From Anolis carolinensis (taxonomy: Eukaryota): a stretch of 64,000 bases of DNA. Below, piece by piece: positions 1,382 to 61,467 of this stretch. Under the pieces are notes generated by a model, which ran no database searches, had not been told where the DNA came from, and saw only the letters and a program-made list of their open reading frames with translations. The position numbers and the translations under genes were made by a program. The stretch's first letter is position 1. Each line of letters begins with the position of its first letter. Where the stretch lies: positions 10,217,190 to 10,281,189 of the forward strand of contig NC_085846.1 in the NCBI RefSeq assembly GCF_035594765.1, read 5' to 3'.

Positions 1382-1412
<31 letters not shown>

Positions 1413-1414
1413 CC

Positions 1415-1446
<32 letters not shown>

Positions 1447-1455
1447 CATCATCAC
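1381..1455. repeat. (CAT)n microsatellite in intron 1 of gene A
   Basis: Direct inspection; source of the spurious poly-His/poly-Met ORFs. Confidence 0.95.
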
Positions 1456-5881: not shown

Positions 5882-5912
<31 letters not shown>

Positions 5913-5918
5913 GATACA

Positions 5919-6054
5919 GCAGTGGTTCTCAACCTTTGGGTCCCCAGGTGTTTTGGCCTTCATTGCCCAGAAATCCCAGCAAGTTTACCAGCTGTTAGGA
6001 TTTCGGGGAGTTGAAGGCCAAAACATCTGGGGACCCATAGGTTGAGAATGACTG
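5919..6054. mobile_element. Short hAT-type MITE
   Basis: TIRs CAGTGGTTCTCAACC / GGTTGAGAATGACTG with palindromic interior; related copy at about 24224-24355. Confidence 0.7.
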
Positions 6055-16039: not shown

Positions 16040-16331
16040 CTGTGAAAACTTATAGGTGCGCAGGATATCTGCCATGAAAAGACAGACATCAGAAGTAGGT
16101 CCCCCAATGACGGCTGCTAGGTTGTCTTGAGTGTCACATTTGTAGTTAGGGAAAAATTTTCCCCAGGTAGAAAGGAGTTCCATTGAAGCAAGATAAGTAA
16201 AGTCGGCAAGAAAATGACTGTTGTAAATGCAGAATCCCAATGTGATGTTGGGTAAGATGAGGGAATTTTCATTGATCTCCTTAATGGCAAAAATCAAGGC
16301 CAGGATGTGTTGGTAGTTGTGAGAAAGCACT
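16040..16331 (-). CDS. V2R gene B, coding exon 2
   Basis: 292 bp, canonical splice sites, V2R exon-2 motifs. Confidence 0.96.
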
Positions 16332-16499
16332 CTGAAATAACAGTAACAGCGGACTTATATTTCAGATTAATACACATTTTCTATTTGCATTCCACTAAAA
16401 TATATTGAAGAATGTCTGACTATAGATACAGAAAAATGTGCTTGAGCCTTCTACATATACAGTTGAACACTGATGTAGGTGTGAATCAGAATTCATATG

Positions 16500-16544
<45 letters not shown>

Positions 16545-16640
16545 GGCATTGAATGTTTGCCCTATATGTACATAATGTGATCTGCCCTGAGTCCCCTTCG
16601 GGGTGTGAAGGGCAGAATATCAATACTAAAAATAAATAAA

Positions 16641-16679
<39 letters not shown>

Positions 16680-16993
16680 CGTTGTCGTCATCATCATCAT
16701 CAGCACTCTGTCGTGCTTTATCTCTCCAAAAAGAGACCCTAAAGCACTCAAAACAATGCAATATGCAAACATGGGATGATATTTATCATAATTTTACTTT
16801 TGAAAGGTAGCAATGAAGTCTTGAATAACTATATGAAAAACTTTAAAAAACATTTTTGTATATTTTCTAATATTATTTCCATTTTTAATTTAAACCAGTT
16901 CCAACATATAACAACTGAATTGTTAACAGATCCCAACCTCTCATGTCTGAATTATTGCATAAAATAATTTGGGGGGAAAAACCAAATTCATAC

Positions 16994-17253
16994 ACCGTAT
17001 CTCCTTGAGATTTCTCAGCAGGATTTTGTCTAAAGGATATCTCTTCAGAAGACATGAAAATCTGAGACAGAATGGCACCTATGAGCAGGTCTCCAGAGAT
17101 GTGATACTTGTGATGAATATGAAGAGATCGACCAATGTCACATGAACCAGCTGTGCATGCCACCTGAAACAGACTGAATACCAGCAGAATGAAAATGAGT
17201 TGGATGGATAGTTTAATTCTGCATAGAAATATTCCACTTGGATAATTAGCCAT
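16994..17253 (-). CDS. V2R gene B, coding exon 1; spliced CDS 2655 nt (~884 aa), apparently intact
   Basis: ATG at 17253, signal peptide, GDLLIG motif, phase-2 GTATGA donor; all six exon phases join in frame. Confidence 0.92.
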
Positions 17254-17530
17254 TGCTTCCCACACTGTGATCGAGGTCTCCTGTAGTAGTACAGCCTGTT
17301 TGAAGTTCCGTTTGTTTCCTGATTTGAAATCAGTTCTGTACAGTGTGAAATATACACAGTCAAAGCAATGGAACCATCTTTTCCTCCATCTACAGCTCCA
17401 ATGACATTAGCAATCTGCATATAATTTAAAGCAATGCACCCCAATGCAGGTTCATTTATAGATAAATCCCACTGATTGTACAATGATGTAGTCCTGTGTA
17501 TAAAAGAGCAAAGACAGAACCCTTTCTTCA

Positions 17531-17546
17531 CTAGAATTCCCTGGAG
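17531..17546. promoter_or_regulatory. Candidate O/E (EBF)-like site upstream of gene B; related motifs upstream of A, C, D and E
   Basis: CTAGAATTCCCTGGAG; reverse complement contains CTCCAGGGA, which fits the YYYCARRRR O/E consensus. Confidence 0.45.
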
Positions 17547-18268
17547 TTTCCAGCAACGTAAAAGAAGTAAGAGCAAATAGAATAAACTTGATCATTAAAT
17601 GGGAGGACCCTGGGGCATTGCAAAAATATGTTTATCACAACTCCACAGGTGTCTTCTCAGATCATACCAATTTTACCAGGAGTCATATGGGTCGTATGTT
17701 CATGAAAAAACATGTCCAGAAAGCAAAAAAGTTTCCAAGGAAAGAACTAGTTTTCTGGGCATTAACTGGCTGCCCAATATTTTACACAAGTTTGAGACTA
17801 TGGGGTTGATGTTTCCAAAAGTAAGATCAGCATTGCTGGATTTGATTACAGGCCTAGATAGTCCTCTTATTCGTGTTGTGTTTTATCCCAGGGGTCATTT
17901 ACACTGTGGAAATAGTATAGTTTTAACTGTGATGGTTCATTTGCACCCGTTGGTTCTGTTGGGTGGGATGTGTGCCAGTTTGGCTAGTTGGTGGAGGAAA
18001 TGGGCTAAGCAGACACCTGTCCATCTCTATGTCAAAAATCCATGAAAAGAAATGGGGAATTTATTGATGTGGAGCATCTCAGAGCATTGAATGGGCCAAG
18101 GGAACAAGTTTGAATTTCATCGTTACACTCACGGGATGAAGGAATTGGAATGGAGGTCAAATTTGGGATTGGCCTGGGTCTCGTCCCCTCTTTTAGGGGT
18201 TTGAAACACACCATGTTCTTCCTTGCATTTAAAGGTTGGCTGGGTACAAAGCCCTCAGATATAGCTAG

Positions 18269-18651
18269 TGTCAGGGTTTGTCCATACTATCCTTCCTCTC
18301 CCAACATGGCATGGGGTAGATGAAACTGGTATTTCTCCGTACCAGTTTCATCCACCCCATGCCATGTTGGGAGAGAGATGATGGTTAGGCTCTCTGATAA
18401 GAGCTATCTGGACCTGGGCGGGGGGGGGGGGGGGACTGGGAACTGTAGAAGTGTTATGTGAGAATGGAATGTAGCTGTTTGAAATTAGATAGTGGGAGGG
18501 GGACGGGTTAGCTAGGAGATATACACCGCAGTTGGCGGGAACTTGCTAGAGCTCTCTTTCTATATCCTGTGGTAAGAAGGAAATAAAGCTGTCTCTAAGG
18601 ATTTGCCTTTGTGAGCGTGCTTTTATTCCAAGATTCCCCAAGGGTCTGACA
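18269..18651 (+). mobile_element. Solo LTR (383 bp)
   Basis: Termini TGTCAG...CTGACA; 5-bp TSD GCTAG/GCTGG; AATAAA near 18582; absent from the paralogous region of gene A. Confidence 0.8.
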
Positions 18652-18798
18652 GCTGGACTCTTAGCACGAGGCTGGGAGGTGACAAGGAAGGAGCCTCAGA
18701 TAGATCCCATTTGCTTCAAGCATCACAGTCAATAACTGTGCTAGATGAAGGTTATAGACATTGTTGGCACAGACCTATGAAAATCCCTGGGGATAGGG

Positions 18799-20100
18799 TG
18801 TTGTAGTTGAGTCTGCTGGCAATATTACCAACAGTAGAAGTACTAGTAGGAGGAAGAGGGGTAATCTTGAGCAGGTACCAAATGAAGAACAGCAAAGGAA
18901 ACAGATCTGGGAGATACTTATGGCACCTTATGAGGAAGGCACGTTTGAAGGGTTTCCAAGTGATGAGGAATCAATGATTTAAGAAGGAGACAGGATGGAT
19001 GTGAATAGAGGAACTAAGAGGGTTACTCGGGAGCAGGAATCAGATGAGGAACGGGAGAGGAAGAAGCTCCGGGATATACTTACTGCTCCCATAGAGGAGG
19101 AGTCGTTTTTTAGTTTCTCTGGGGATGATGGGTCTGAGAGTGATGAAAATGTGGAGGGCACATCGGACTGGACTAGGGTACAAGAAATAAGGGATATGAG
19201 TGCGGAGCCAACTTCTAGTGATGTGTTTGTGGGGTCTTCGGGACAGGAGGATTGGCAAACAGCTGATATACCAGGGCCATGGGGAAACCTAAGTCTTGAT
19301 AGAAGATGGAGGAGCTGGAGGGATGAGAACCGGGATTCACATGTGATGACAGGAACAGCTGTGGGAGATGATGATGGGGTGGAGGCCAGCTCATCTTCAG
19401 AAAATGATGTGTAAGTTAAAAGTAGGGTCTGAAATGGGTATCCTTTGCAGAAGGCAAAGTGTCATTTTAGCGTATGTTTGTCTCTGCTTGTTTTTCCTAT
19501 TGGGTTTTGGGTCCTGGCTCTGCAGCTTGGCATTCCTGGTTCCTGTGATTCTTGGACCTTTCGACTGGCGATTTCGGCTCTGTTTGATGACCTCTGGTAA
19601 CAACGTTTGGATTGGCTTATCACGGTTGCAGCTTTCTCCCCTCCTGGCTTTGGATTGACTTCACTTCAGCTCTGGTTACCCTCTTCAGAAAACTACCTTT
19701 GGATTGGCTATCGTGAGTGCGGCTTTCCCCTGTTCCTGGATCCTGGTTTGACTCGACTGCAGCTTGTGTAAACACCTTGAGGACGTCATTAGTTTGTACC
19801 TTCTGTTCTGCTGCTTTTTGAACTTTGACTGGTTTTGTTTACCTTCCGAGTACAATGCTGTCTTCCAGGAAGTCTGTTACAGTGCTGTTTGCTGCCAATT
19901 CCATTGACTGCATTTTAATCCAGATTATCCATCTATTTAATCCGGATTATTTTCCGTTCTTCCTCTTGAGCCCAGTTTGGGCTAATACTTTGAGTTACAC
20001 TACAGTTAAGTGTCTCTGAGCCTGTTTTTGAGTTGCAATAAATCTTTTGTTAAGACTGAGTATTGTGTGTGTGGCTCTTTAAGGCGCCTGTGTTCCGACA
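18799..20100 (+). mobile_element. Solo LTR (1302 bp), Gypsy- or BEL/Pao-type
   Basis: TGTTG...CGACA termini; perfect 5-bp TSD TAGGG (18794-98, 20101-05); AATAAA at 20037; empty site visible in the gene A duplicate (about 4257-4265). Confidence 0.87.
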
Positions 20101-21259
20101 TAGGGACTGTTGAGGATTCGGGGTCTTACCGTATTCACATAACCCCGTTTTGAGCAATTTACGTACTCAAAACTCTACTGTACAATCAGCATAACCTGGT
20201 GTCTTAAACCAGATGGTGAGCACTGACACCTTGTCCCAAAAGGACTGTGGCGCCAACCCTTTCCTTCTAAGAAAGACGTAGAACTGTAATACATATTCAA
20301 CCAGGACTGGCAAAAGATCACTTAGCCTGTATTTCTTTCTGAACCACAGTACAGCCCTTGTATAAGAGCTGGTGCCAACACTAGCCCGATTCCCCTGACT
20401 CCCTCCTCACTCCAATTCCTCATCATCAGCATCTACTCCATCCGAATGATGGTGCGGCATACTCCACAGAGCTTCAGCTAAGCCATTGTCAATCTCTTCC
20501 ACATGAAAAGCCTTGAACCAAATGCCATGTGGGAGGCAGTGTAATTTAGAACAATGGATTGCTTCCATGACACAGTTAGACTTGGTTGTTAAGAAATTAA
20601 AAACTTTAACCTGTACCGTGGCCTTATTGTCACATCAAAAATGGATGATAGAGTTAGCAAACTCCGCTGCTCAAATTGTAACTGCAACTAATATGGGAAA
20701 AATCTCTAAGAAAGTGATATCTGAGGTGATACCTACTGTGTGCCAATGCTTGTGCCACCTTTTTGAACACCAATGACGATGAATGTATACACTGATCCAC
20801 AAAGTCCATACCTCGAGAAGTCTGACTTGTCCATGGTGGTCTTAGTTACCTCCAGATTGGATTGCTGCAGTGTGCTCTATGTGGGGCTGCCTTTGAAGAT
20901 GGCCCAGAAACTCCAATTAGTACAACATTCTGCAGCCAGGTTATTAACTGGAGTGAATTATAGGGAGCGGACAACCCCCCTATTAAAACAGCTCCACTGG
21001 TTACTGATAAATGTAATGTATTTTTTCAGATAGCTGGAGATTCCTAGATGTAGATTCCATCTAAAATTAGCTGACCAGACTGCTCCAAAACCTCAGGATA
21101 CTCCAGAACTTTTGAACTGGGGCACGAACAGGTCAAACCAAACCTAACAAAAAAACCAGGCTATTCACCAAAAATAGCCATACATTTGAGAGGAGATCTG
21201 CGTTTTTAGCTAGTGTAGGAAAGCTTTAATATAGAAAATGCAAATGGGTCATTTATGTT

Positions 21260-33101: not shown

Positions 33102-34154
33102 CAGTGATTCCCAAAGTAGGTGTTACCGCCCCCTGGTAGGAGCTGGTGCGATCCAGGGAGGCAGTGATGGCACCTATTAGGACACGGGGGCGGGGCCAGG
33201 GGAGGGGCGGGGCCTCTTCCCAAGTGCTGGAGACAGGGCTGACACCTGAAGTGCCTGTTAAGACAAAGGGGGCGGAGCTAGAGGAGTGGGCGGGGCCTCC
33301 TTCCAAGAGCTCGAGACAGGGCTGAACCTCTATACCTCTCCTGAGAGGCCTTTTAGGACTAAAGGGTGGGGCTAGGGGCGGGGCCTCTTCCCAAGAGCTC
33401 GAGACAGGGGTGAGCCTCTATACCTCTCCTGAGAGGCCTTTTAGGACTAAAGGGTGGGGCTAAGGGTGGGGCCTCTTCTCAAGAGCTCGAGACAGGGCTG
33501 AACCTCTATACCTCTCCTGAGAGGCCTTTTAGGTCTAAAGGGTGGGACTAGGGGCGGGGCCTCTTCCCAAGAGCTCGAGACAGGGCTGAGCCTCTATACC
33601 TCTCCTGAGAAGCCTTTTAGGACTAAAGGGTGGGGCTAAGGGTGGGGCCTCTTCTCAAGAGTGCAAGACAGGGCTGAGCCTCTATACCTCTCCTGAGAGG
33701 CCTTTTAGGACTAAAGGGCGGGGATAGGGGCGGGGCCTCTTCCCAAGAGTGCGAGACAGGGCTGAGCCTCTGTATACCTCCCGAGGCGCTTGTTAGAACA
33801 CGGGGGCGGGGTATAGAGGTTCAGCCCCACCAGGCACTTAAGAAGAGGCCCCACCCCCTCCTCTAGCCCCACCCCCTGTGTCCTGGCAGGTGCCGCAGGA
33901 CAGGGATAGAAGCTCAGCCCTGCCTCAGAGCTCGTAACTCCACCAATCCCAGTCCTGGCCGCCCGTTTGTAGCCCCGCCCACCTCCCCCTCCCCCTCCCA
34001 GCCCTGCATCCTGGCCTAGGGGAGAGGCTCAGCCCCGCCCTCTTAAGCAGGAGCCACGCCCACCCCTCTAAGCCACGCCCCCCTTTCCAGGGGGCGCTGA
34101 GTAATATTTTTTCTGGAAAGGGGGCCGTAGGCCAAATAAGTTTGGGAACCACTG
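33102..34154. mobile_element. Non-autonomous hAT element carrying an 88-bp GC-rich minisatellite
   Basis: TIRs CAGTGATTCCCAAA / TTTGGGAACCACTG; TSD ATTTGGAG/GTCTGGAG. Confidence 0.8.
33225..33800. repeat. 88-bp minisatellite, ~6.5 copies
   Basis: GAGACAGGG unit starts at 33313, 33401, 33489, 33577, 33665 and 33753. Confidence 0.93.
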
Positions 34155-42054: not shown

Positions 42055-42303
42055 TAGTTCCATCAGAGGACTAGAACAAATCTGAAACTTTAAGACATTA
42101 CGTATGAAGTCTAGGCTCGCAGAGACTATATTAATAAAAGCTCACATTATCTTAAATGTGAGGAGGAACACAGAAAATTCTGGTGAAATTGAGATGACAA
42201 CAGACATAATCAGATGCCACTAAAAAAAAGTAACTCACAAAGCATAATCTAAAAACGTGAATCTTGAACAACTATGGTGATATTCCTTCTCATTTAGTTT
42301 TAC

Positions 42304-43161
42304 CTGCCATGGCAGCCAATTAGCAATATTATGGATTTGTCCCTTCTCCGTTACTCTCATTCTGGACCGGGAGGATCCCATAAATTGCAACGCATGGACC
42401 ACAGCAAGGACAGCATTGTAGACACTATAGCTGTAACCAGTCATTCTCATTTCAAAAACAAAAGAAGGAAGGGACTCCAGTTTCTCCTCCCCTGTGCATG
42501 TCTTCTCAAAATTCCAGTATGAAGTGTAATTTGGTAAAGAACACAAAAATGCATTTTGCCAGAAGTTTCTGAAAAATATATCTTTTTTTGCAATTGGGTT
42601 TTGAGTCTGAAGAAATTTCTCGAAGCTTGTTACTTCTTTTGAATGAATTGCAAGGGATATAGAGCCATGGAGGAAATTGATGCCTCCAAATCTTAGGATA
42701 GGATGTTTTGTGAAATCCACCTGGGCAGTCAAAAGCAAGACTTTCCCTTTTGGTTCTATTGGCACAAGTTCATATCTTGAAATGTTTATCAGTATCTGAA
42801 CAATTAGTAGAGCAATAATCTGACCATGTATTATGAACACTCTGGCAGTGCTGTCACTGAACATTTTGAGTGCTTCTATCCCTTCATCCAAAATATTGTC
42901 CATTTCACTTGAAAAATGTTGCCTGGGGAATTTTTGTTTGAAGGCAATGCAAATGCCATTCTCTGAAAAGATTGGAAGCACATTTTGTACAAACCACTCT
43001 CCAGTCTCATCCTCAAAATAAATCACCCCAATCCATATCCAGTGGAAGTGTTGAAGTAACTTAAGAATCCCCATATGTTGGTGGTCCCCATTTGGAAACA
43101 TATGGTAGATGAAAACTCCTTGGATGCTGTTATCCACCATAGGAACAGAGCCATATGTAAG
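42304..43161 (-). CDS. V2R gene D, coding exon 3 (intact copy)
   Basis: 858 bp, open, canonical splice sites, Venus flytrap motifs. Confidence 0.95.
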
Positions 43162-43403
43162 CTGAAGAAATAAATTTTGTTTTAATAAAGAGGAGATCTC
43201 CTGTGACTGCATCTACATATATGCTTGTTGCTTTCCTTGGGAGAGGCAAGAATAATGTATTATAGTGGTTGGAGTGTTGGAGTAAGTTTCTGGCAGAACC
43301 ATGAGAACACATTGGGTGATTCTGGGCAATTCACACATTCTCAGCCTAAGAGGGAGGTAATGACACACCTTCTCTGCATAAATTGTGCCACTATACTCTT
43401 ACT

Positions 43404-44489
43404 CAGAGCCAGCCCTAGGTAATTTTGGGGGGTAGGCGAACCAAATCTTTGCCCCCTCCCGAATTTGGCACACCCCCCCTCACACACCCAAACCAATACC
43501 TGCGAGCTGGGGCGGCAGGGATCATCACTCGGCAAAAGGCCAAATGAGGAAGGCCAGGCTCCAGGATGGCCTAGCTCTTCTAGAGAGAGCTTGCAAGGTC
43601 TTGCGAAGTCTTGCGAGGTCTTGCTAAGTCTCGTGAGGTCTACCGAGAAGAGCCTGGCCTTCCTGGAGCCTGGCCTTCCTCGTTCGGCTGTTTGGCAAGT
43701 GATGGTCCCTGGCAGTGGGAGCGGCAGCGGGGACCATCCCTCGCCAAACAGCCAAATGAGGAAGGCCAGGCTTTCCTCGGGAGACCTCGGGAGACTAATG
43801 AGGTCTCCCTAGAAGAGCTAGGCCTTCCAGGAGCCTGACCTTCCTCGTTCAGCCATTTGGCGAGCGATTGTCCCCGGTGGTGGCGGCGGCAGTGGGACCA
43901 TCGCTCACCAAACAGCCGAATGAGGAAGGCCAGGCTCTTCTCGGGAAACCTCGCGAGACTTCGTGAGACCTAGAGACCCTAGAAGAGCTAGGCCTTCCTA
44001 GAGCCTGGCCTTCCTCGTTTGGCCATTTGGCATTCGGCAGCGGGGACCATTTCTTGCCAAACAGCTGAACGAGGAAGGACAAGTTCCAGGAAGGACTAGC
44101 TCTTCTAGGGAGACCTCACGGGGTCTCACAAAGTCTCACAAGGTCTCATGAGGTCTCCCGAGAAGAGCCTGGCCTTCCTCGTTCTGCGTTTGGCGAGTGA
44201 TGTCTCTCCCCCCCCCCCGCCGCTGGGGACCATCGCTCGCCAAACGGCCGAATGAGGAAGGCCAGGCTCTTCTCGGGAGACCTCGCGAGACTTTGCGAGA
44301 CCTCGTGAGGTCTCCCTAGAAGAGCTAGGCCTTCCTGGAACCTGGCCTTCCTTGCTCAGCCATTTGACGAGCGATGGTCCCCGGCGGTGGCGGCACCTGG
44401 ATGGGGGAACTGTCAAAGCCTCGACAGCGCCTCCCTTGATGTGTGCCCCAAGCGGCGGCTTCAGTCGCTTCAACATTGGACCGGGCCTG
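43404..44489. mobile_element. hAT element carrying a palindromic GC-rich tandem array
   Basis: Left end CAGAGCCAGCCCTAGGTA (same family as the 10499 and 56672 MITEs), right end GGGCCTG; imperfect TSD CTCTTACT/CCCTTAAT. Confidence 0.72.
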
Positions 44490-44854
44490 CCCTTAATGTT
44501 ATAAAATTTGGTTCCTAAGAGCAAGAACAACCATGTCCTTCCTTGCTCCATCTGAATTAATTCCACAAGAGTATTAGAAAAATATCTGAAACTATAGATG
44601 ATGAAGGATGAAGTCAATGAAACTCAATTCTAGGTTCACAAAGACCAGGACAATCAAAGTTCACAGTATCCTAAGTCCAAGGAGGAGTACCAGAAACTTC
44701 TGATGGAATAAAGTGTAAGGCAGACCTAAGCAGAGGCCACCAAAAAACAAACAAACAAGCAACCCCCCTCATTTGTAATATGCAAAACATAAGAATTTGA
44801 AAGTTGAGCATGTGCAATCACAACTATGGGATGTTTTCCCCCCATGAGGTTTAC

Positions 44855-45898
44855 CTGCCATGGCAGTTGATTAAGAATCTCATGGTTTGGTTCCTTCCTC
44901 GTAACCCTCTTTCTAGACTGTGAAGATCCCATAGACTGCAGGGCATGGACCACAGCAAAGACAGCATTGTAGATACTGTAACTGTGGGTGGCCATTCCCA
45001 TTTCAAGCACAGAAGTAGGAAGAGACTCCAGCTTTTCCTCTCCTGTACATGTCTTCTCAAAATTCCAGTATGAAGTGTAGTTAGGTAAAGAACACAAAAA
45101 TGCATTTCCCCAGAAGTACAACTGGTTTTCTGGTCTGAAGAAATTCCAAATACCTCTTTGGAATGAATTGCAAGGGCTATACTTTTCTTTCTTCATTTCA
45201 GGAGTGACTTGAGAAACTGCAAGGCACTTCTGATGTGAGAGAATTGGCTGCCTGCAAGGAGGTTGCCCAGGGGATGCCTGGATGTTTTACTATCCTTGTG
45301 GGAGGCTTCTCTCATGTCCCTGCATGGGGAGCTGGAGCTGACAAAGGGAGCTCACATGCTCTCCCTGAATTTGAACCGCTGATTTGTCGGTTAGCAGCAG
45401 TACTGGCATGGAGGAAATCAATGTTCCAAACTGTATGTGTGTGTGTGTGTGTGGGTGGGGGGTGGGTGGGGGGGGGTGAAAACCACCTGTGCTGTCAAAA
45501 TCAAGATTTTTCCTTCTGAATTTATTGAACTATATTCATATTTTGAAATCTGTAGATACATCCCAATAGCTATCAGAATTGAAGACTCTCTATGTATAAC
45601 CAACACTTCAGCAGTGCTGTTCATGGCAATTGCATGTGCTTCAATATCTTCCACTACAGTATTTACCATTTCACTTGAAAAGTCTTGCTTGAGGTACATT
45701 TTTGTGAAGACAACACAGATGCCCTCCATTTTTTACAAACCTCTGAGGCTTCATCATCGAAATAAAGCACCCCAATCCACATCCAGTGGAATGGTGAAGT
45801 AATGGAAGGATCTCCATAGAAACCCCATGTGGAAACACGTGGTAGAGGAAAGCTTCTTGGATGTTGTTATCCATCATAGAGATAGACCCATGTGTAAG
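44855..45898 (-). pseudogene. Decayed duplicate of V2R gene D exon 3 (pseudo-exon)
   Basis: LTHGSISMMDNNIQEAFLYHVFP...FWGNAFLCSLPNYTSYWNFEKTCTGEEKL..PWQ; frameshifts, deletions, a SINE and a (GT)n insertion; AG and GT sites retained. Confidence 0.9.
45182..45406 (-). mobile_element. tRNA-derived SINE (AnolisSINE2-like), 5'-truncated, inside the pseudo-exon
   Basis: Reverse complement matches the SINE body at 26433-26698. Confidence 0.78.
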
Positions 45899-47103
45899 CT
45901 AATTTATTTTATTTATTTTTTAAAAAGAGGAGACTTCTAAAAGATGTCCCTGCAGTTGTGTTTACAAATATGTTTGTAGTTTCCTCTTTTAGAGGACAAA
46001 GTATGGCAGTGGTCTGAATGTTTGATTAGCACCCCAAGAGAGCCATAGAACCCTATGGTATGCCTTCGAGGAAAAAGATTCTTAGAGGAAACTGTGGATT
46101 TCCACCTACCCTTCTGTTTATTCTGACTCCAATTTGTCATCGAAAACATCTCAGTTTTTTAAAACCACCTTTTCTTACATTAGGAAAGCAGGAAATTGTG
46201 ATTCACTCTTACGTGACAAGGGAGAAAGTCAAGCGCTGCTCTAAACCTTTGCTTATTATTTATATTGTAAATATTTATATCAATTTTTGATCTATGAATA
46301 CTAGGCTTGTGCGTGGATCCATTTCAGTGGTTTTCCTTTGGCCATAATAGGATACAAAAAATAAGCAAGACATCAAATAGAGCTAAGAATATATCGCAGA
46401 AGGCTTTTGCACAGTCATAAAGTTCCATTAGTACAGCTGCAGACTTATTTGTACAATCAATGGATGGCCACCTCTCTCATGTATGGAGATGGGAAGCCTG
46501 GAAAAAAACCTGGAAAAATGGGGGGGGGGGAATTCCCCCTCAAAATTGAAAAGTGTGTAGAATATGATATTTTCCAATGATAAATAAAATATATATGACA
46601 TGGTATTCAAATTATATAACATGAAGCCCTTGATGAAAGACATTTTGTTTCTGCACCCTTTTCTCCCAAATTTTTCTTTTAAAAATGGCTTTGGAAAAAA
46701 ATGGGAAAAAACTGTTTCTCCTCCAATTTTTCTGGGTTTTTTTTCCAGGCCTTCCCATTTCTACTCATGCCCTTGCCAAGTCTTCTTTAGAGATAAATAT
46801 TATATATCATTAAACTGATCTGGGATCAATTGAAATAGTCCTAAGATGGTTAAAGGCAAGTCCCTCTCTGTGCTCTCACCATGACAGCATCTTTCAGATC
46901 CAGATCCAGTCTCACTCCATTCCTCAGACTGGGATAATGCTTCAGGCTAGGATAATGTGGCACAGAATGGGCTGAAGTGACTCCTTTTGAAGCTGATCCA
47001 GATAGATTCAAATTGTCCTGACTTACTTACAGATCTTTACCCATGATTTCAGTTTTGCGAATATTAAAAAGGCTATAAAACTACACACAAAGTCAGCACT
47101 TAC

Positions 47104-47395: not shown

Positions 47396-47710
47396 CTGCA
47401 ATGAGAAGAAATGCTGGGTCATAGTGGATCTGATTTGATATTGCACTAAAACAGAGTGGAGGCCACTGTCTATTAAGGATCCCCAATACTGGATGCTATA
47501 TGTGATTTTTTTAAAAATACGAAAGTCTGAATATAGGCCTAAAAAGAATATGAGCTACACATACAGAAATATACCCCATGGGCGGAACTCTAGATCAAGA
47601 AATGAACTGATATCAGAATAGTGTAGCACAGGGAAGATCAGATGCCAGAGTTTCAGGATATACTTTCTTTTTGAATTAAAAGCCTGAGATCTACTAACTT
47701 TTGTTCATGT

Positions 47711-47950
47711 CATGAGAGACTTGAGAAACTACGAGTTGCTTCTGGTGTGAGAGAATTGGCCGTCTGCAAGGACGTTGCCCAGGGGATGCTCGGATGTTTT
47801 ACCATCCTGTGGGAGGCTTCTCTCACGTCCCCGCATGGGGAAGCTGGAGCTGACAGACGGGAGCTCACCCCGCTCCCTGGATTCAAACTGCCAGCCTTTC
47901 GGTCAGCAGTCCTGCTGGCACAAGGGTTTAACCCACTGCGCCACTGGGAG
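47711..47950 (-). mobile_element. tRNA-derived SINE (AnolisSINE2-like)
   Basis: Same body as the 26433 copy, with a tRNA-like head at the right end. Confidence 0.8.
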
Positions 47951-48416
47951 TTACATCTACTAACTGAAAGTATTTGCAAAAGTCATACACAAAGAATGAA
48001 TGGATGGATTTTTAAGCCAGAAATCATTTTCAGTACTGAACGAAATATGCTATCAGTTTACAAAACAAACAAAAAGCCAACTAACAGATGCACCAGTCAC
48101 ATTCAATTTAGTATGTAGTTCTACCCAATTGGTTTGGAGCTGCAAATATATTTACAACCAACAACTATCACTAAATAATGATTACCAATACCTAATAAGT
48201 TATATGCTGCCTTTCCAATGAAGGGAAATCAGATGGTAAAGCCTATCAACAGAATGATCCTGATAAAGAACATTATCAGGACACATGCATTTATGAATGC
48301 TTTTGAAAAGGAAAAATAAACCCACCCCTTACATTACACCGTTGGAAGTATCAAAAGTATTCAAAGTTTTTGAGTGTTGAGAACTGAGTATGATTTCACA
48401 AAATTCCGGTACTTAC

Positions 48417-48634
48417 GTGATGTCATCAATGAGTTCAGGAGAAGGAAGTTCTTTAAAGGTCTCTGGTGATGAAAATATGAAACTTTGAGACATGATAGCA
48501 GCAATGTTGATTTTTCCTGGTTGAAAAGACTTGTAAAGAATTGGAAGGAGTCCACTGACGTTACATTGAACATTCGGAAAGGTGCACACTATGTGAGGCA
48601 AGAGCACTAATATCAACACCACTATGACCATCAT
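48417..48634 (-). CDS. V2R gene D, coding exon 1; spliced CDS 2625 nt (~874 aa) when the intact exon 3 is used
   Basis: ATG-ATG at 48634, signal peptide MMVIVVLILVLLPHIVC, phase-2 GTAAG donor. Confidence 0.87.
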
Positions 48635-50469
48635 ATTTAGCAAACTATTTTACCACTCCAGAAATATAAGAGGTCTGTGGAAGGACAGCTGGATTTTTCT
48701 GGCCATTCATTCATCTTAATGCTTTGGAATAATAGTTTGTAAAGTTGAAATTACCTTTGACCAAATAATTGGAACACCTTCTGTCTCTATTCTATTCTTA
48801 ATAGTCAGATATGTACATTTATACCATCAATTACTCTATGCTTTAAATGAAAATGATCAGACTGGTTAGGGTCTATTTGCTACTATCTCCAACCCCGAAT
48901 CTTAAATGTTTATTCCTGTCTTCTCTGTGTTATTTTTTTCTGCAGGGAAATCTCCAGGGAACTAGAGAAAATATTACCATAGGCAAAGTGATAATGTGAT
49001 AATTACAAGGAAGGCAAGCCCTTTGTAACTGTCACAGCTTCAAAGAGAAAGCAAAGACAAAAACATGTTTATTACATTTTAAATAGAAATCATACTTTCT
49101 TCTTTGGAACAGGAAAATAAACTTCATGTGGACATAGTGAAGGGTCATAAGCCAGAAAATAGTAAACTTTTGCCTATGTAGCTTTGCCTCTGCATATGCT
49201 CCTTCCTTCCTGTGAGCTGGTGCCTTTCTCCAGAAAGTTCCAAGGAGAGAAGAAAGCTCGGAGTAAACAAGTTAGGTCATTGGTATCACTTGTGCCAAGT
49301 GGGTGTGGAAGGCGAGGAAGACCCTCAGCCACTGGTCAATTTTAGATAAATGCATGGCCTGACTCACCAGGCCAGGCGTGTTGCGGGGCTGGCCGCCCCC
49401 GTCATGGCGGCTGCCATGGACCTTCTTCTTCCCAGAGGCCCTTGGGGCGGCGGGAAACTTTCCCGCCACCAGGGCCCTGGGCCAATGGATTGCGGGACCG
49501 CCCCTGCTTGCCATTGGGCAGGCAACACAGGGAGGGCGGTCCCAGCTGCTGCACAGGCCCCAAGAGGGCCAGAGCAGGTATTCGGCGTTTCCCGCTTGAG
49601 GAGGAGGCTGCAAGGCTCGCAGGGGAAGCGGCGGCATGGGAGAACGGCGAGCACCCCTTTAAAAAAAAAAAGAAGAAGAAGAGGGAGCGCGCAGGGCACG
49701 GCGGCGGTGGAGCAAGCAGCGCTGGAGGCAGCGTCCCCGAATCAGCGGAACCGTTCGGAGCGGTATGGCTCAGGGCCCAGGGGTCAAGTGGCTGGCTCAC
49801 GTGGCGCTTGCTCCTATGCCCCCCCACCCCTTTTTTCTCCGTCGGGGCGGACAAAAACGGGGATGTCCTTTCCTCTTCGGGGCTTCTCCCGGTTGGGCAT
49901 ACCTACTGCCCGGGACGCGGGGGCGGGGGTGGGGAACCAGGCCAGGCGCCTTGGCGGGGGGCCAGCTGCTCGGCTCGGCCTCAGCACCCAGCAGCCATGG
50001 GGCACTCCGCCCCTTCTCCGCGGCGTCGGCGGCGGGGGGGGGATTGTTTTTTCCCCAGCACTCAGGAGTAGGGCCTCCATTCGGTGGCTTAGACTAGCAC
50101 AGCCCCACAGCTCCCTCGCCCGGCTCTTCAGCGGGCGAGGCCTCGTCCGGCCGCGCAGCCGGTTGGAAGGGGGGGCTCTCAGGCCTCCAACATGCTACTT
50201 GGGGGGCCGGAGTTGGGTATCCATAGACACTGCGCGGCCATCATCTTGATTTTTACAGCCAGCGGTGTTTTTTGCCAGGCTTCCATGCTGCTGTATAACT
50301 CACGGAACCCCCCCCCCCCTTATGGGGCAGCTGCGTTTTGGCAGGCCCCTATGCCAGGCCGCATGGGTCGTCTTTCCCCTTCAAGGGGCCAAATCACCAG
50401 GGCCGACCGCACCAGGGGAAGTTGCCTCAAGGGGAAGTTGTTTTGTTTTCTATATTTTAACACAGGAGA

Positions 50470-51822
50470 ATGGCACCAAGAAAAATGCCCAGAAAAAAGG
50501 TGGCTGCTGGGAAGGAAACGGCGCCTGCGTGGACAAGGTCTTCCAGGAGCCAGGCGACAGCGGCCCAAGGAGCAGGAGCGAAAGTGGCGGGGAAAAACCC
50601 GGCATGCAAGGCGGCAGCCAAGCGGGCAGGGCAGCAGGAGGCTGTGGTCCTAGAGGGTATCTCCCAGAACCTTGCCCGCCTGGTTGACAGGATGGGCAAA
50701 CCCGAGTCTAAGGTTTATCGCAGGGCAGAGAGGACACCAACACCGCAACCGAGGGAGGAGCAGAGAGGCAGAAGGCATACAAGAGACAGGGAGATTTCCA
50801 TTACACCTTCACCCAGTCCGGGATCCAGCGCCGACGAGTCACTAGCTACGGTTGAGCGGGAGGTTCGGAGCAGCGGGGGGACTCGCAAGAAAACACGCAG
50901 GTCTTCCAGGCATTGCTGTCAGCAAGGGACCGACAGCGACTCCGCTGAGAGTGAGTATGCCCGCGTTGACCTAGTTGACAGAGACAACTATTGGAGGACA
51001 GCGGCCCTTGTGCCGGGACTCCCTGAATGGGCCATTAGGGATAGAACAGAGACAGCATCTGCTCTAGGGGCTCCCTGTGGCGCATGGGGAAAACGAAAAA
51101 CCCCTACCCCGGTGCTACCAGGTCCCTTCCAGGACAACGAAGACCCCCCTGGGTCGCACCTTTCACCACGCATCATCAGCAGGATACTAAAAGGCTACTA
51201 TGTGGACATTTTTTCTCTCATAAAACCTGAGGGTGAGGAAGGCAGGGAGCCCCCATCCAAGGGCAGGCGCCGTAAAAGTGATAAGGACAGGCCAGCAGAG
51301 CAAACCTTCATTAACTGGATGGCCGGTTTCTCTGAATATCTAGGTGTAGTGGCTACATCCTTCCCTGATTGGGCTTGGCATCTCGCCAACCATCAAAAAA
51401 ATGTCGTCAAAGCTAGGAGGCTAGCAGGCGAAGCGGCAGCCATTGCTTACGATATTGCCTTCAGGCAGAGCACTTCCCAGAGTGCCAGGGTTAGATGGGA
51501 CCTTAAGAATCACGACATATGGCTCACGGAGGTCGGGCCTAGCATCAAGAGCAAATTAGATGCTGGGAGGTCTGATCGTTCATGGGGTAGAAGGGATGCC
51601 AGGCGGGCCATATGCTGGGAATTCAACTTAGGAAAATGCCAGCGGGCACATTGCCGTTTTGACCACGTGTGCGAATACTGCACAGGGAACCACACCAAGA
51701 TGACATGCAACAAACAAGCTGGCGGTTCGCAGCACTTTCGGACAGGCCGGGCGGGCGCCCAGCCCGGCTTTAAAAAAAAAGGAGGCGCATCCGGCGGAGG
51801 CAACTCAGGACATTCCAAGTGA
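50470..51822 (+). CDS. DIRS/Ngaro ORF1, gag-like protein with C-terminal CCCH and CCHC zinc fingers
   Basis: 450-aa ORF; CWEFNLGKCQRAHCRFDH followed by CEYCTGNHTKMTC; YVDIFSL and W..YD..FR blocks. Confidence 0.85.
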   Translation: MAPRKMPRKKVAAGKETAPAWTRSSRSQATAAQGAGAKVAGKNPACKAAAKRAGQQEAVVLEGISQNLARLVDRMGKPESKVYRRAERTPTPQPREEQRGRRHTRDREISITPSPSPGSSADESLATVEREVRSSGGTRKKTRRSSRHCCQQGTDSDSAESEYARVDLVDRDNYWRTAALVPGLPEWAIRDRTETASALGAPCGAWGKRKTPTPVLPGPFQDNEDPPGSHLSPRIISRILKGYYVDIFSLIKPEGEEGREPPSKGRRRKSDKDRPAEQTFINWMAGFSEYLGVVATSFPDWAWHLANHQKNVVKARRLAGEAAAIAYDIAFRQSTSQSARVRWDLKNHDIWLTEVGPSIKSKLDAGRSDRSWGRRDARRAICWEFNLGKCQRAHCRFDHVCEYCTGNHTKMTCNKQAGGSQHFRTGRAGAQPGFKKKGGASGGGNSGHSK

Positions 51823-51874
51823 CAGGCCTTTTGAGGCTTTTGCTCTGGCCTCGACCCCGGTTTGTCTTACCGCC

Positions 51875-53452
51875 ATGCTTCCCTGGCTAAAAGCTTACCC
51901 CCTCAAAGCAGCTGCCACATTTTTATTAGAAGGTTTTTCTTCAGGTTTTCATATACCGGCGGAAGGGCCCAGAACCACATTCACCTCGGGCAATCTCAAA
52001 TCTGCCACCCAGATGCCCGAGGTCCTTAGGAACAAAATTGTCAAAGAGCTGGAGGCCGGTAGGGTGGCTGGACCTTTTCCAGCACCGCCATTGGAGAATT
52101 TCAGAGTTTCCCCACTAGGAGTGGTGCCCAAGAAGGCGCCGGGCGAGTACCGCCTCATACACCACTTATCTTACCCAAAAGGCTCGTCGGTAAACGATGC
52201 TATCCCTCCTGAACTCTGTTCAGTAAAATACGCCTCTTTTGACCAGGAGGTCAACCTAGTACGGGAAAAAGGACCACACGCACTGATGGCAAAATGCGAC
52301 ATCCAGTCAGCATTCAGACTCCTCCCGGTCAATCCAGCGGACTTCAACTTGCTGGGTTTCAAATTCCAGGACCAATGGTACTTTGACAAAGCCATGCCCA
52401 TGGGCTGTGCAGTCAGCTGTGCAGCATTTGAGACTTTTAGTTCCTTTTTGGAATGGGTAGCCAGGACATTCGCCCATTCCAGATTTATTACTCACTACCT
52501 CGATGATTTTCTTTTTGTAGGGGGCCGCGACAGTAAAGAATGTACGCATCTCCTCAGGTCATTCGTAGCCATGGCCAAGGTATTTGGCATCCCGCTGGCA
52601 GGGGAAAAAACAGAGGGGCCTGCCACCACAATCACTTACCTAGGCATCCAGCTGGACTCCGTCAGGGGAGTGTCCCAGCTGCCCGCGGATAAGCTCTCCC
52701 GGCTGGGAGACTTGGTCCGCGAGGCCTTACACAGGAAGAAAATCACCCTTAGGGAACTCCAGGCCATTTTGGGCCACCTCAACTTCGCCTGCAAAGTTGT
52801 GTCACCGGGGAGGCCATTTTGTGCCCATTTGGCCAGGGCCACGGCGGGGATCAGCGCCCCACATCATAGAATCAGGGTGACGCTAGGTATGCGGGAGGAC
52901 CTCAAGGTTTGGCTGGATTTCCTTGGCAGGTTCAATGGTGTGTCCATATGGCAGGACAGATAGGAGCCTGAGGAAGAACTTCAGGTAAATTCGGATGCTG
53001 CAGGGAGCTGCGGTTTTGGAGTTTTCCTGCAGGGACACTGGTGCGCATCCAGGTGGCCGGATAGCTGGCGAGAGGGCGATATACTGCGGGACCTTACTTT
53101 TCTGGAGTTTTTCCCAATACTAGTGGCGGTCAGGACCTGGACAGACATGTTAAAGGATAAGAGGGTGCGTTTTTGGTGCGATAATCAGGCGGTGGTCAAG
53201 GTCATTAACAAGCAAACATCCAGGTCAACCAGGGTCATGAGACTTGTAAGACAGTTTGTGCTAACTTGTTTGGAAGCTAACATTACTTTTACAGCTCAAT
53301 ATATTCCAGGTGTTGTCAATGAAGTAGCGGATGCATTGTCCCATTTCCAGGACGACAGGTTTCGATCATTAGCACCAGAGGCAGACCTCCAGCCCACCGT
53401 TTTTCCACAGGAGCTGTGGACCCTTGGAGAGGAGAGGCATGGGCGGAGCTGA
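51875..53452 (+). pseudogene. DIRS/Ngaro ORF2, reverse transcriptase + RNase H, interrupted by one in-frame TAG (52961-63)
   Basis: SPLGVVPKK, KCDIQSAFR, MPMG, YLDDFL; the same frame resumes with SDAAG..LEFFPI..WCDN..NEVADALS (RNase H). Confidence 0.92.
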
Positions 53453-54480
53453 TGCTAACCATTGCCCCAGCAACTAGGAAAGCTTATCGCGCAGCGGTGG
53501 CCAAGTTTACCAAGTTTAAATTGGAGTCGGGCTATGGCAACAAGTGGCCAACCAACGAGGACGAAGTGCTGCACTTCATCATTCACCAAAAGAGGTCCAA
53601 CGTGTCGGCACATGCCATGAGGCGTCACCTGGCGGGGATCACCTTCTACAGCAGGGCGGCTGGCTGGAGCGACCCATGCAACGAATACAGAATTAGAAAG
53701 CTCTTAAGAGGATGGAGCAAGCAAACACCTAGGCAGCGGGACAGCAGATGCCCCCTCTCCTACAATACCCTAAGCAGAATCGTCGCATCGCTCAACAGGA
53801 TCTGCGCTTCCCGTTATGAGGTGAAGCTATTTTCCGCAGCCTTTACTACAGCCTTTTTTGGGGCCCTGCGACTTGGGGAGGTGGTGTCCAACTCCAAGCA
53901 TGATAGGTCGGGTAGGGCACTCCAGCTCAGGGACGTTGCAGTCAGGCACAACTCAGTGGTCATTCGGGTCAGACAGTCCAAGACGGACCAAGGGGGGAAG
54001 GGGGCATCCCTCAACATTCAAGGCCTAGAACCGGGTCGAGTGTGCCCAGTCCGGGCTCTCTCCAAGTTTTTAGCGGCACGCAGCAAGTCCCTGGGTGCGC
54101 TTTTCATCCATCGGAACCGAACCCTCCTGACCAGGTACCAATTCATGGCTATATTCCGCAGCGCAATGCGGGAACTGGGTCTCCCTGCCGCAGAATACGG
54201 GGGACATTCATTCAGGATAGGGGCGGCCACCACCACAGCCGTAGGTGGGCTGCCGGAAAATGTCATCAAAGCAATGGGGAGGTGGAAATCAGCGGCTTAC
54301 ACCACTTACATCAGGCCCAGCCTTCTCCTAGAGGCTGCGGGGTCTGCCGGCTCCTCTCCTTCCCTGCAGGTATGCCACCGTGAAAGGAGGAAGGAGGCTA
54401 GCGAATGGCGAGGAGCGGGGACCGACAACAACCGGGTGAAAGGAACTTCACGGCGCAAAGGTGTTCAGAAAGCTGTCTAG
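53416..54480 (+). CDS. DIRS/Ngaro ORF3, tyrosine recombinase
   Basis: Catalytic R (GALRLGE), K (SKTDQ), HxxR (GHSFRIG), W (GRWKS) and Y (YTTYIR) all present; overlaps the RNase H end. Confidence 0.93.
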   Translation: MDPWRGEAWAELMLTIAPATRKAYRAAVAKFTKFKLESGYGNKWPTNEDEVLHFIIHQKRSNVSAHAMRRHLAGITFYSRAAGWSDPCNEYRIRKLLRGWSKQTPRQRDSRCPLSYNTLSRIVASLNRICASRYEVKLFSAAFTTAFFGALRLGEVVSNSKHDRSGRALQLRDVAVRHNSVVIRVRQSKTDQGGKGASLNIQGLEPGRVCPVRALSKFLAARSKSLGALFIHRNRTLLTRYQFMAIFRSAMRELGLPAAEYGGHSFRIGAATTTAVGGLPENVIKAMGRWKSAAYTTYIRPSLLLEAAGSAGSSPSLQVCHRERRKEASEWRGAGTDNNRVKGTSRRKGVQKAV

Positions 54481-55273
54481 CCGGCCTGGAAGGGATACTT
54501 CGTACTCGAATTCCATCAGAAGCGACATGGTCGCAGAATAGGACTCAGCATCGTGTCCTGGGCACACAGTTGCAATTATTGTTTGGAATTTTGATTTTGT
54601 TGGTTACGGAAGGTAGGGTTGGCGGCAAGGAGAGTGGGGATCACACCCTCCTTTTTGTGGCGTCTAGCATGGGCCCGGGATCAGCTATGCTTACTCCCCC
54701 CCCCTCATTGGCAGGAGGGGGGAATATCATTGCGTCCTGTGGGCGGCGCTTTGGTACCGATTACCGGGCTGGTATCGGTTGTGCCTTAGTTTTGCTTCAT
54801 GATCAAGCAGCACCGGGCTGACCGATCGATGATCCAGGACCCATGCGTGGTTGCCAACCCTTGTTCCTGTAACCAATAAATTGTTGTGGCCTTGTTATAC
54901 CCAAAAACATGTGTAGTGTGGTTTTTATGTTAGTACACCAAAGGCGGGACCAGGTCGCCCATGCCCAAGCAAAAGCCAAGATATATATTCTTTGCTAACT
55001 GCGCATATGTTGTGACGGCCATTTGCATGGTACGGACCCATTAGACTGGGTGCCTATGGCTGTTCGCCTTATCATTAGCTGTGATAACAGTAAAAGGCTT
55101 GTTTTATTGCTCTCTTGGAATTTCTCTCCTTTACTTCCCCTCCGGGCCAGTCTCCAACAGTTGTAGATCATCACATCAAAAAGTTAAAAATTAAGCAACA
55201 AGAAACAGATTTTCAAGATGGAATTTGGGAGGCACCAAAAATGTGAGACTCTCAAAATCATCATGATCATCAT

Positions 55274-55824
55274 AGGAGTCACGGTGGCGTAATGGATTAA
55301 ATAATAATAATAAATAATAATAAAACTTTATTTATACCCCGCCACCATCTCCCCGACGGGGACTTGTGGCAGCTTACATGGGGCCATGCCCAGGACAATA
55401 CAATATAACAAGATACAAAACAACATATCATAATACAATTAATACAATAGATAATAATGTACAGTACAACACAAAGTCAAGAAAGCAATATCACAAGGGC
55501 GGGCCGCATGAACACTAAGATAAAACTCGGGGTGAGAAAGGGATAAGAATAAAAACTTCGGGGAACAGGGACACCCTTAACCCTTTTTACCAGTTGAACT
55601 GCTGACCTGAAGGTTGGGTTGTGACCTGAAGGTTGTCAGTTGGAATCTGCGAGATGGTGTGAGCTCCTATCTGTCAGCTCTAGCTTGTGGGGACATGAGA
55701 GAAGCCTCCCAGCAAGATGGTATCACATCTGGGCACCCTCTGGGCAACATCTCTATGGAAGGCCAATTCTCTCACACCAGAAGCGACTTGTAGTATGTTC
55801 TCAAGTCACTTCTGACACCATTTT
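55274..55824 (+). mobile_element. tRNA-derived SINE (AnolisSINE2-like) split by an inserted retroposon tail (about 55300-55575)
   Basis: Head GGAGTCACGGTGGCGTAATGG; body resumes at about 55577 and matches the 26433 copy. Confidence 0.6.
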
Positions 55825-60610: not shown

Positions 60611-60867
60611 ATGGATTATTTCTCCGAACATCTGTTTTCTTCAAAGGTGATGGTGTTTCTGGCTTTGGTTTTGGTGCTGCTCCCAGTGAGTGTATGCAGC
60701 ATTCTTCCTGATCTTGAATGTGCCATCAGCAAGCCTCTACCCATTCTTCATGATTATTACTATGCAGGGGACCTGATTGTTCCTGTAGTTATTTCTCAAA
60801 TACTCATCATTTATGAAGACAGAGATTTCACAAAAGATCCTAATCTGCTATCCGTTGAGTACCTCTC
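60611..60867 (+). CDS. V2R gene E (partial, continues right of window), coding exon 1
   Basis: ATG at 60611; paralog of gene C exon 1; phase-2 GTAAG donor. Confidence 0.9.
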
Positions 60868-61467
60868 GTAAGCAGTTGCATGTTTTAACTGTATAATGTA
60901 TTAATTCTGTTTCACAGTTATCTTTAGCTATATCAGTTGTATTATTTTGGGAATAAAGTCATAAGGAGGAATCATGTTATCTTGACCCTCGTCTGAATTG
61001 TGTAACAATCATTTTGAACACTACTAACTGTGAGTGTATATTTACATGTGTTAGCTGCCATGTGTCAACCTCTTATCTATCTCTCTGTTAAGATCATAAT
61101 TGGGTGACAACAACAAGTCTTCCCATATCCACCACTCCATGATGTATATAATTATAGATGTATGAGTTGGAGTCCACTACTATACACAATAAAATATATT
61201 AAATGCTTGAAGTCTCATGTCTTTGCTGCAGAATACTAAAGTGATTTTTCATGCAAATGTTCACTACTGACTTCCAAAGTAATGCCTATTCTGAGGTAGT
61301 GTTTTAAGAAGCCCAAGAGCCCTTGCATGGTTTCCATTTCTGATCTCTTTCCCAAACTAGGGCTCTACAATATATCATGATGCAATGTTTTATTCAGCAT
61401 ATTATGAGCTATTGTTTTTTTTAGTGATGCAGATAATTTGTAGTGTGGCATATAATTCTCATTACAG

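Follow-up and report, generated by a model that had tools for sequence, protein, structure and literature searches.

A young, defective Ngaro-like retrotransposon copy in an Anolis carolinensis V2R cluster: likely frameshifted Pol, likely spliced recombinase and probable loss of SGNH and repeats

A stretch of 64,000 nucleotides of Anolis carolinensis (contig NC_085846.1, positions 10,217,190 to 10,281,189 of the forward strand; here called the window, in whose coordinates all positions are given) covers a lizard V2R cluster, recognized by its 7tm_3 and ANF_receptor exons, and harbors a retrotransposon with a tyrosine recombinase (YR) at about 49300-54969. An earlier, sequence-only reading of this locus found neither a methyltransferase nor an SGNH hydrolase in the element, saw no inverted terminal repeats (ITRs) or split direct repeats, and proposed either a structurally atypical lineage or a recombination product. 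This raises the question which kind of element inserted here, and how its overlapping genes could be expressed. In this study, we identify a young but defective YR retrotransposon copy. With a probability of roughly 0.7, we read it as a recent, now non-autonomous Ngaro copy of the Anolis lineage, with a frameshifted Pol and a spliced YR, that has lost its SGNH domain and its repeats.

Relatives of the element and the predicted route to Pol

The element carries three open reading frames (ORFs), for Gag, for reverse transcriptase (RT) with RNase H, and for the YR (Table 1). All its best protein matches come from Anolis: the closest Gag relative is A. carolinensis P0241 (74% identity), the closest Pol relative A. 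sagrei P0121 (76%) and the closest YR relative the Anolis protein P0001 (75%). Thus, the element is not a chimera of superfamilies, and of the proposed recombination product only recombination between its own repeats stays plausible. The pol frame matches RVT_1 (E=1e-13) and RNase H-like profiles and is interrupted by a single in-frame stop (52961-52963), as the sequence-only reading had described. The methyltransferase is indeed absent: the pol frame and the alignment both stop just after RNase H, and neither the window nor any of the 18 scanned pol relatives gave a Dam match. Neither a DDE integrase nor a protease was found in the element.

DNA of relatives was recovered as 15 contigs (L001-L015) from a scan of bacterial and archaeal genome assemblies, and these encode relatives at 39-52% pol identity. 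Representative assemblies are those of Sedimenticola, an Escarpia endosymbiont, Mariprofundus and Cycloclasticus. Since the gene content of the contigs is that of an animal retrotransposon, it suggests host DNA binned with symbionts. Only L003 and L005 (45-47% RT/RNase H identity) extend far enough past SGNH to show the whole structure, and both have the order gag-pol(+1)-YR(-1), an SGNH ORF, no methyltransferase and A1..B1-A2..B2 repeats (in L003, A of 883 bp at 100% and B of 110 bp at 99%). Such split repeats define Ngaro elements (PMC9210276, PMC3783388, PMC8547959). In both contigs about 1.2 kb of unique sequence separates A2 and B2 (L003 6186-7443, L005 5570-6782) and opens with a CCCAYCCCACCC tract, a longer spacing than in the usual drawings of Ngaro, which put A2 and B2 next to each other; L008 has a tract similar to CCCAYCCCACCC after a promoter-like block.

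An RT/RNase H tree (48 rows from 8 of the 15 loci, 39 of 120 protein matches and the window; quick IQ-TREE, midpoint-rooted) joins the window copy with A. sagrei P0121 (100), in a squamate clade (98) beside Xenopus and other anurans. The element thereby groups with Xenopus proteins and with elements that lack a methyltransferase and bear SGNH and split repeats, in a tree free of named Ngaro, DIRS1 or PAT references, which weighs against the placement. An origin by loss of methyltransferase and repeats from a DIRS1-like or PAT-like element, or as a mixture of superfamilies, would draw on this lack of outgroups, on the Ngaro-mimicking PAT lineage without methyltransferase in Caenorhabditis briggsae (PMC4157794) and on the abundance of DIRS1-like elements in A. 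carolinensis (PMC3266345). We consider it highly improbable, given the Dam-free pol relatives, the split repeats and SGNH of the relatives with DNA, and the concordant best matches of the three ORFs. RT placement and gene order thus point to Ngaro, a family call that rests on the relatives, with the copy as a defective derivative. The structurally atypical lineage proposed earlier is mostly explained by decay of this copy and loss of an optional domain.

How would Pol be translated in such an element? Pol lies in the +1 frame with respect to gag in all 13 elements compared (12 loci with gag and pol plus the window; L011, L013 and L015, which have no gag, were dropped); compared two by two, these elements mostly show 38-69% identity in pol, and two pairs reach 78-79%. 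Within the gag/pol overlap, an in-frame TTTC is present in 13/13 elements and TTTCG in 10/13, the latter being the most widely shared in-frame 5-mer there (the runner-up reaches 7/13). Across the overlaps, TTTCG occurs at 13 of 1034 gag-frame positions versus 1 of 1021 in each other frame, and outside the overlap at 5 of 3940. It directly follows the zinc fingers of Gag in L001-L006 and the window copy (7/7); in the other six elements the overlap begins earlier and the TTTC site lies upstream. L006 carries exactly UCC_UUU_CGU, and the codon ahead of UUU is CAC in the window copy and CCN or UCN in most relatives.

The proteins carry a corresponding signal. Among 152 Gag relatives surveyed, 111 had both fingers matched and 104 had usable tails; Phe-Arg was found in 30 of these 104, against a shuffle mean of 10.6 and a maximum of 21 (2000 shuffles). 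In 12 of the 17 top-ranking Gag relatives it follows the fingers immediately, and three more have Phe-His, Phe-Cys or Phe-Gln, variants that CpG decay of a CGN codon would yield. Read in the pol frame, the shift-site bases give PF[VAEG] in all eight squamate models that are long enough (4/12 are too short), 30-40 residues upstream of the RT anchor. UUU_CGN is a known class of +1 site, which mass spectrometry demonstrated for influenza PA-X, at about 1% efficiency (PMC3498833), and a UUU_CGN +1 frameshift was proposed for amalgaviruses (PMC5052127). Low-rate +1 frameshifting at UUU_CGN is the likely route to Pol, and its conservation backs it well.

Several points weigh against frameshifting. 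UUU_CGN is not universal: Phe-Arg is limited to the 30 Gag tails counted above, a frog-type subclade is mostly without it, and 3/13 DNA elements have UUU_C without CG; the motif count also takes related elements as independent. Pol might instead start at an internal AUG or be read from a spliced gag-pol RNA, with Phe-Arg kept for a function in Gag. A pol-frame Met indeed lies about five residues past the conserved TP anchor, where model P0121 begins, pol-frame AUGs occur in the finger region of the frog-type subclade, which lacks the motif, and five other RefSeq models fuse gag to pol. However, the junctions of these five differ from model to model, so that a spliced gag-pol was rejected as a prediction artefact, and an internal start would drop conserved residues. 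The codons at the motif are TTT plus CGN in 7/7 post-finger elements, whereas other Phe-Arg pairs in the same tails are TTC AGA or TTT AGA, and the enrichment of TTTCG is specific to the gag frame and the overlap. We therefore regard translation of Pol without frameshifting as doubtful, if still a serious competitor, and retain the +1 shift. A -1 slip on the A-run at 51769-51781 was also rejected, since pol is in the +1 frame and the run is not common to the DNA relatives.

Likely splicing of the recombinase and probable loss of SGNH

The YR ORF lies downstream of RT/RNase H in the same orientation, overlaps pol by 130 nt and matches Phage_integrase (E=2e-5). As the sequence-only reading had stated, the catalytic residues are all in place (R 53869, K 53980, HxxR 54205/54214, W 54283, Y 54307); their roles are presumably those of the corresponding residues in other tyrosine recombinases.

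From one and the same gag donor, three A. carolinensis RefSeq models continue differently: P0001 enters the YR frame at the acceptor at 53350, P0243 returns to gag, and P0244 proceeds to the end of RNase H. Because donor and acceptor are both phase 1, the gag-YR join is in frame. The Gln codon at this acceptor is CAG in 10/10 elements, compared to 104/181 for other Gln codons, and a low-complexity N-half joined to a YR was also read by eye in models from Pogona, Anomaloglossus, Xenopus and Geotrypetes. It is likely, judging from these sequences and gene models, that the YR (and SGNH in relatives) is expressed by splicing from a mid-gag donor to conserved acceptors. Against this, the frame relation by itself dictates phase 1 at the YR acceptor, the marine relatives do not keep their strong gag donors at a constant position, several YR ORFs carry a Met of their own, and RefSeq models are predictions; the in-frame claim is built on phase arithmetic and model P0001. 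Introns occur in some DIRS-group elements, so the splicing part of this scheme may already be in print. At the acceptor just upstream of gag, the Anolis model P0244 enters gag from an upstream exon, and P0001 and P0243 read through.

In relatives, the region behind the YR encodes SGNH. An SGNH ORF follows in 5/7 loci with a complete YR (L008 and L009 are without it), it begins after a CAG in phase 1 in 5/5 relatives, and in the Podarcis model P0042 SGNH is fused to a related YR. In the window, no SGNH was detected in six frames, either by tblastn or with a profile from the SGNH domains of six relatives, as the sequence-only reading had anticipated. After the acceptor at 54369 only three codons precede a stop. 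A fourth ORF was rejected, as this frame hits two stops within 32 nt, and an open frame of 139 aa (54402-54821) without a Pfam match was left as probably non-coding. Among 22 YR proteins, read-through tails of 45-59 residues are confined to four from Anolis; two tails have 22 residues and the other sixteen no more than 12. Across the acceptor, the Anolis tails can be aligned with the tail of the window copy (P0001, E 8e-6). SGNH loss thus looks like an event of the whole Anolis lineage that left an orphan acceptor, and it probably preceded the split of the Anolis families (25-40% protein divergence), which are known here as protein models.

Age and ends of the copy

The element stands out as a GC- and CpG-rich block at about 49300-54970 (GC 0.57; CpG observed/expected 0.60 versus 0.27 and 0.26 in the flanks), so the abundant CpG retention noted before is borne out. 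Of the description 'young, almost intact', the youth stands; the copy is not pristine, with its pol stop and with 6/207 pol columns that are conserved in 15 relatives altered (five other genomic copies show 1-10 such departures). Three of the six changes are of the CpG-deamination type, and this CpG-type decay would imply germ-line methylation of the copy. The ends are approximate. The 5' end lies at about 49290-49310, and the 3' end is uncertain because 54970-55160 holds 5 CpGs versus 2.0 expected (p=0.054); it may be placed up to about 175 bp beyond 54969, possibly out to about 55145. The segment just past the proposed end (54970-55145) retains CpGs, contains ATTTGCAT and a C-rich tract, and is perhaps element remnant, not host DNA. 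For fixing the ends, the flanks 49070-49300 and 54970-55260 had no counterpart within the window that could serve as an empty-site paralogue, and no target duplication was found at the ends by seed search, blastn or local alignment.

Seed search and self-blastn (word size 7) gave no terminal direct or inverted repeats, and in end-to-end local alignments the top scores were 26 and 25, where shuffles averaged 26 and 26. The copy shows neither ITRs with an internal complementary region (ICR) nor split direct repeats; on this point the self-comparison confirms what had been seen by eye. Truncation or recombination between repeats most likely removed the repeats of this copy. Xenopus Ngaro copies have often lost some or all of their repeats, which are missing from the DIRS-54_XT consensus although present in copies (PMC9210276); solo AB products occur in Cafeteria (PMC8547959), and a solo product is also described for SIRE (PMC6681497). 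A reciprocal B1xB2 event would leave a repeat-free A-ORFs-B structure, as found here, and truncation or integration of a circle with one A and one B would fit as well. Weighing against this account, the Anolis family is read from one DNA copy, and its repeats are judged from relatives.

Both ends of the copy are strongly folded. As single-stranded DNA, the promoter-like 5' region has a fold z of -6.5, the best of 38 tiled windows (second estimate -4.3), and the 5' 300 bp are also strongly folded. This region contains 3 of the window's 6 matches to TTTSSCGC, which we take to be an E2F-like site, and two of them form an inverted pair at 49450-49466. In the A repeat of L003, an 8-nt spacer separates the arms of a 22-bp inverted repeat (5884-5935), a possible binding site for a factor or the recombinase. 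At the 3' end, a stem has arms 54596-54623/54853-54880, with inner arms 54667-54688/54825-54846. Its z is -3.4 to -5.0 as RNA and -6.4 as minus-strand DNA, for a region picked after the repeat was seen, and among 19 tiled windows it is the lowest at -4.0 (next -3.7). L003 and L005 have stems of 23-33 bp that begin at the B-repeat start and surround about 400 nt, and changes in one arm are matched in the other. A B-start matrix from five relatives, based on a poor alignment, ranks 54595 first within the element and sixth in the window. Rfam at E<=5 returned one chance match and none for the 3' stem. Homology of this stem with the B-repeat stems of relatives is suggestive only.

Might the copy then be complete, a member of a repeat-less Ngaro lineage in which priming, strand transfer or recombinase recognition relies on folded ends in place of split repeats? 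The copy holds no repeat at all, both ends fold far better than shuffles, it is close to intact in other respects, with AATAAA and a GU-rich tract shortly before its end, and the post-YR region is already modified in the Anolis lineage. However, repeat-bearing relatives have the same kind of long-range 3' stem, which is accordingly no repeat substitute, the promoter-like 400 bp 5' of the likely start site could hardly be regenerated without a second copy, and repeat loss from single copies is common (PMC9210276). We consider such a lineage decidedly unlikely and prefer repeat loss in this copy. By analogy with DIRS-1 (PMC7192593), the folded ends could plausibly act in priming or end restoration on single-stranded cDNA.

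Host locus, proposed life cycle and known systems

Coordinates of the element's features and of the neighboring host exons are collected in Table 1.

Table 1. Features of the retrotransposon copy and adjacent V2R genes in window coordinates.
Feature	Position	Strand	Basis or remark
Ngaro-like YR retrotransposon copy without split direct repeats	49300..54969	+	GC/CpG step, ORFs, repeat search
GC-rich promoter-like 5' region with short hairpins, CCAAT and GC boxes and three TTTSSCGC sites	49290..49700	+	probable A1 repeat or part of it
Polypyrimidine-CAG acceptor, 5 nt 5' of the gag ATG	50445..50465	+	sequence; probable intron of the 5' untranslated region
ORF1, Gag-like, 450 aa: basic low-complexity N-half, helical core, CCCH and CCHC fingers	50470..51822	+	
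Splice donor GTGAGT in gag, phase 1	50951..50956	+	A. carolinensis RefSeq models P0001, P0243 and P0244 exit gag at this residue
ORF2, RT (YLDD 52496-52507) and RNase H, +1 frame versus gag, no methyltransferase	51704..53452	+	
Predicted +1 ribosomal frameshift site UUU_CGG (gag codons) in the gag/pol overlap	51736..51741	+	motif class of PMC3498833, PMC5052127
ORF3, tyrosine recombinase, -1 frame versus pol, catalytic motif intact, 53-aa Anolis-type read-through tail	53323..54480	+	
YR splice acceptor at a conserved Gln codon near the RNase H end	53334..53350	+	used by model P0001
Orphan acceptor, 14/14 pyrimidines, strongest in the element	54350..54369	+	relatives begin the SGNH exon here
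Long-range multibranch stem closing on AATAAA 54875-54880	54596..54880	+	probable B-repeat region
V2R gene D, first coding exon (host)	48416..48634	-	downstream exons match ANF_receptor and 7tm_3
Gene D proximal promoter segment, weakly like that of gene E (61% over 126 nt, E 0.02)	48947..49070	-	
V2R gene E, first coding exon (host), head-to-head with D	60611..60868	+	

The Gag-like ORF with CCCH and CCHC fingers reported by the sequence-only reading was recovered; the fingers (51613-51708) read C-x7-C-x4-C-x3-H, then C-x2-C-x3-H-x4-C. A profile of 86 Gag relatives gave weak PDB matches to the CCCH fingers of MBNL1 and CPSF30 and to a retroviral nucleocapsid. The Gag core (51130-51729) is predicted as a confident helical domain (pLDDT 88; best structural Z 4.9), and against retroviral capsid and solved folds the model had no Foldseek match at E<0.001 and no clear match, which is not evidence of a new fold.

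The insertion had been described as lying in the divergent promoter region of two V2R genes. This holds for gene D, whose ATG (48634, minus strand) is 666 bp from 49300 and whose O/E-like site (48951-48960, about 340 bp away) lies within its promoter segment, both distances being close to those first given; the O/E label we take over from the sequence-only reading. Gene E is indeed head-to-head with D, but it starts at about 60611-60650, 5.6-5.7 kb beyond the element. From this proximity to gene D, and from the methylation implied by the CpG-type decay, one could argue that the insertion is a regulatory change for D, by spread of methylation or through a back-to-back GC-rich promoter. However, the promoter segment conserved between D and E stops about 230 bp short of the element, so that the insertion appears to lie outside the conserved proximal promoter, the element's own promoter points away from D, and the same cluster holds an older Ngaro-like insertion and many other repeats. 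An effect on gene D is unlikely.

The older insertion consists of decayed RNase H/YR fragments at 20100-20805 and 4243-5500 (both minus strand), comes from the other squamate clade (50-60% to P0136/P0138) and is present in both copies of a segmental duplication of about 89% identity (52-7246 and 15573-21232) that carries two V2R genes; Ngaro-like insertions thus recur in this cluster. Two short interspersed nuclear element (SINE) copies in opposite orientation (47700-47950 and 55580-55820), outside the element, flank it at a distance and are the longest inverted repeats of the region; we presume them to be Sauria-type. Elsewhere, gene D exon 3 seems part-duplicated (42107-43196 versus 44626-45933, region 42107-45933) around a GC block rich in tandem repeats (43500-44400), and a further GC-rich tandem repeat block with a period of about 88 bp and an inverted segment lies between V2R genes (33173-33933).

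Taken together, the following life cycle is proposed for the family in its intact state. One RNA would start from a promoter in the 5' A repeat. Unspliced, it would yield Gag and, by a low-rate +1 slip at UUU_CGN just after the fingers, Gag-RT/RNase H. Splicing from the phase-1 mid-gag donor to the acceptor at the RNase H end, sites used in a RefSeq model, would give a Gag-N/YR fusion, and a second acceptor after the YR would serve SGNH in relatives and be orphaned here through the SGNH loss of the Anolis lineage. The RNA would be reverse-transcribed, the A-B-A-B repeats restoring the ends and closing a circle, which the YR would integrate without target duplication; integration of a circle is the textbook model for such elements. 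In the window copy, the 3' A2/B2 would have been lost by truncation, B1xB2 recombination or integration of a one-A-one-B circle. With A2/B2 missing and a stop in pol, the copy cannot copy itself; Gag and YR could still be produced from it.

Whether a broad clade of animal Ngaro elements, from marine invertebrates to lizards, makes Pol by a PA-X-type +1 shift and YR and SGNH as Gag-N fusions, from one donor to successive phase-1 acceptors, is in our judgment evenly balanced. A bolder extension, that the Anolis lineage also dropped the split repeats and uses folded ends, seems improbable. If the scheme is true, a viral recoding class extends to animal transposons, and the overlapping ORFs of this order are explained. 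Most known cases of the UUU_CGN class so far come from RNA viruses (PMC3498833, PMC5052127), and passages of YR-retrotransposon papers describe overlapping ORFs and not how pol and YR are translated. No link of Ngaro or DIRS to UUU_CGN or to a spliced YR was found in the literature searched, which lacked key Ngaro papers, and the portion covered of a recoding review (PMC5009743) does not mention them; the combined frameshift and splice scheme is possibly unreported. The copy itself represents ordinary decay of a known superfamily, and its value lies in a readable expression logic: the conserved UUU_CGN site and the set of donor and acceptors allow exact, cheap tests. The result is also a caution that lizard and frog genes named 'xerD homolog' or 'uncharacterized' in RefSeq are transposon transcripts.

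Compared with Ngaro-like elements (DrNgaro1 of zebrafish; DIRS-53_XT and DIRS-54_XT of Xenopus tropicalis, PMC9210276), the copy shares the order gag, RT/RNase H, YR with short overlaps and the lack of methyltransferase, integrase and protease, and its relatives have SGNH and A1-B1-A2-B2; it differs in having no split repeats or SGNH ORF, a YR tail across an orphan acceptor and the pol stop. With the Anolis RefSeq models (A. carolinensis LOC134298886, LOC103279091, LOC107982626 and LOC103278285; A. sagrei P0121, P0002-P0004 and P0242), it has 74-76% identity in Gag, Pol and YR, the gag donor residue, the type of YR tail and Gln-Pro-Phe-Arg at the shift site in common, whereas the protein divergence of about 25% indicates other families or species. 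DIRS1-like (AcDIRS1/2, DIRS-1_ACar) and PAT-like elements are likewise YR retrotransposons with gag and RT/RNase H, the former occurring in the same host group, but both carry a methyltransferase, and DIRS1-like elements also ITRs and an ICR, none of which is present here. With the influenza A PA-X and amalgavirus class, finally, the element shares a zero-frame UUU_CGN in an ORF1/ORF2 overlap and a polymerase ORF in the +1 frame; it differs in being an animal retrotransposon, in the CAC before UUU and in that its site is predicted from sequence.

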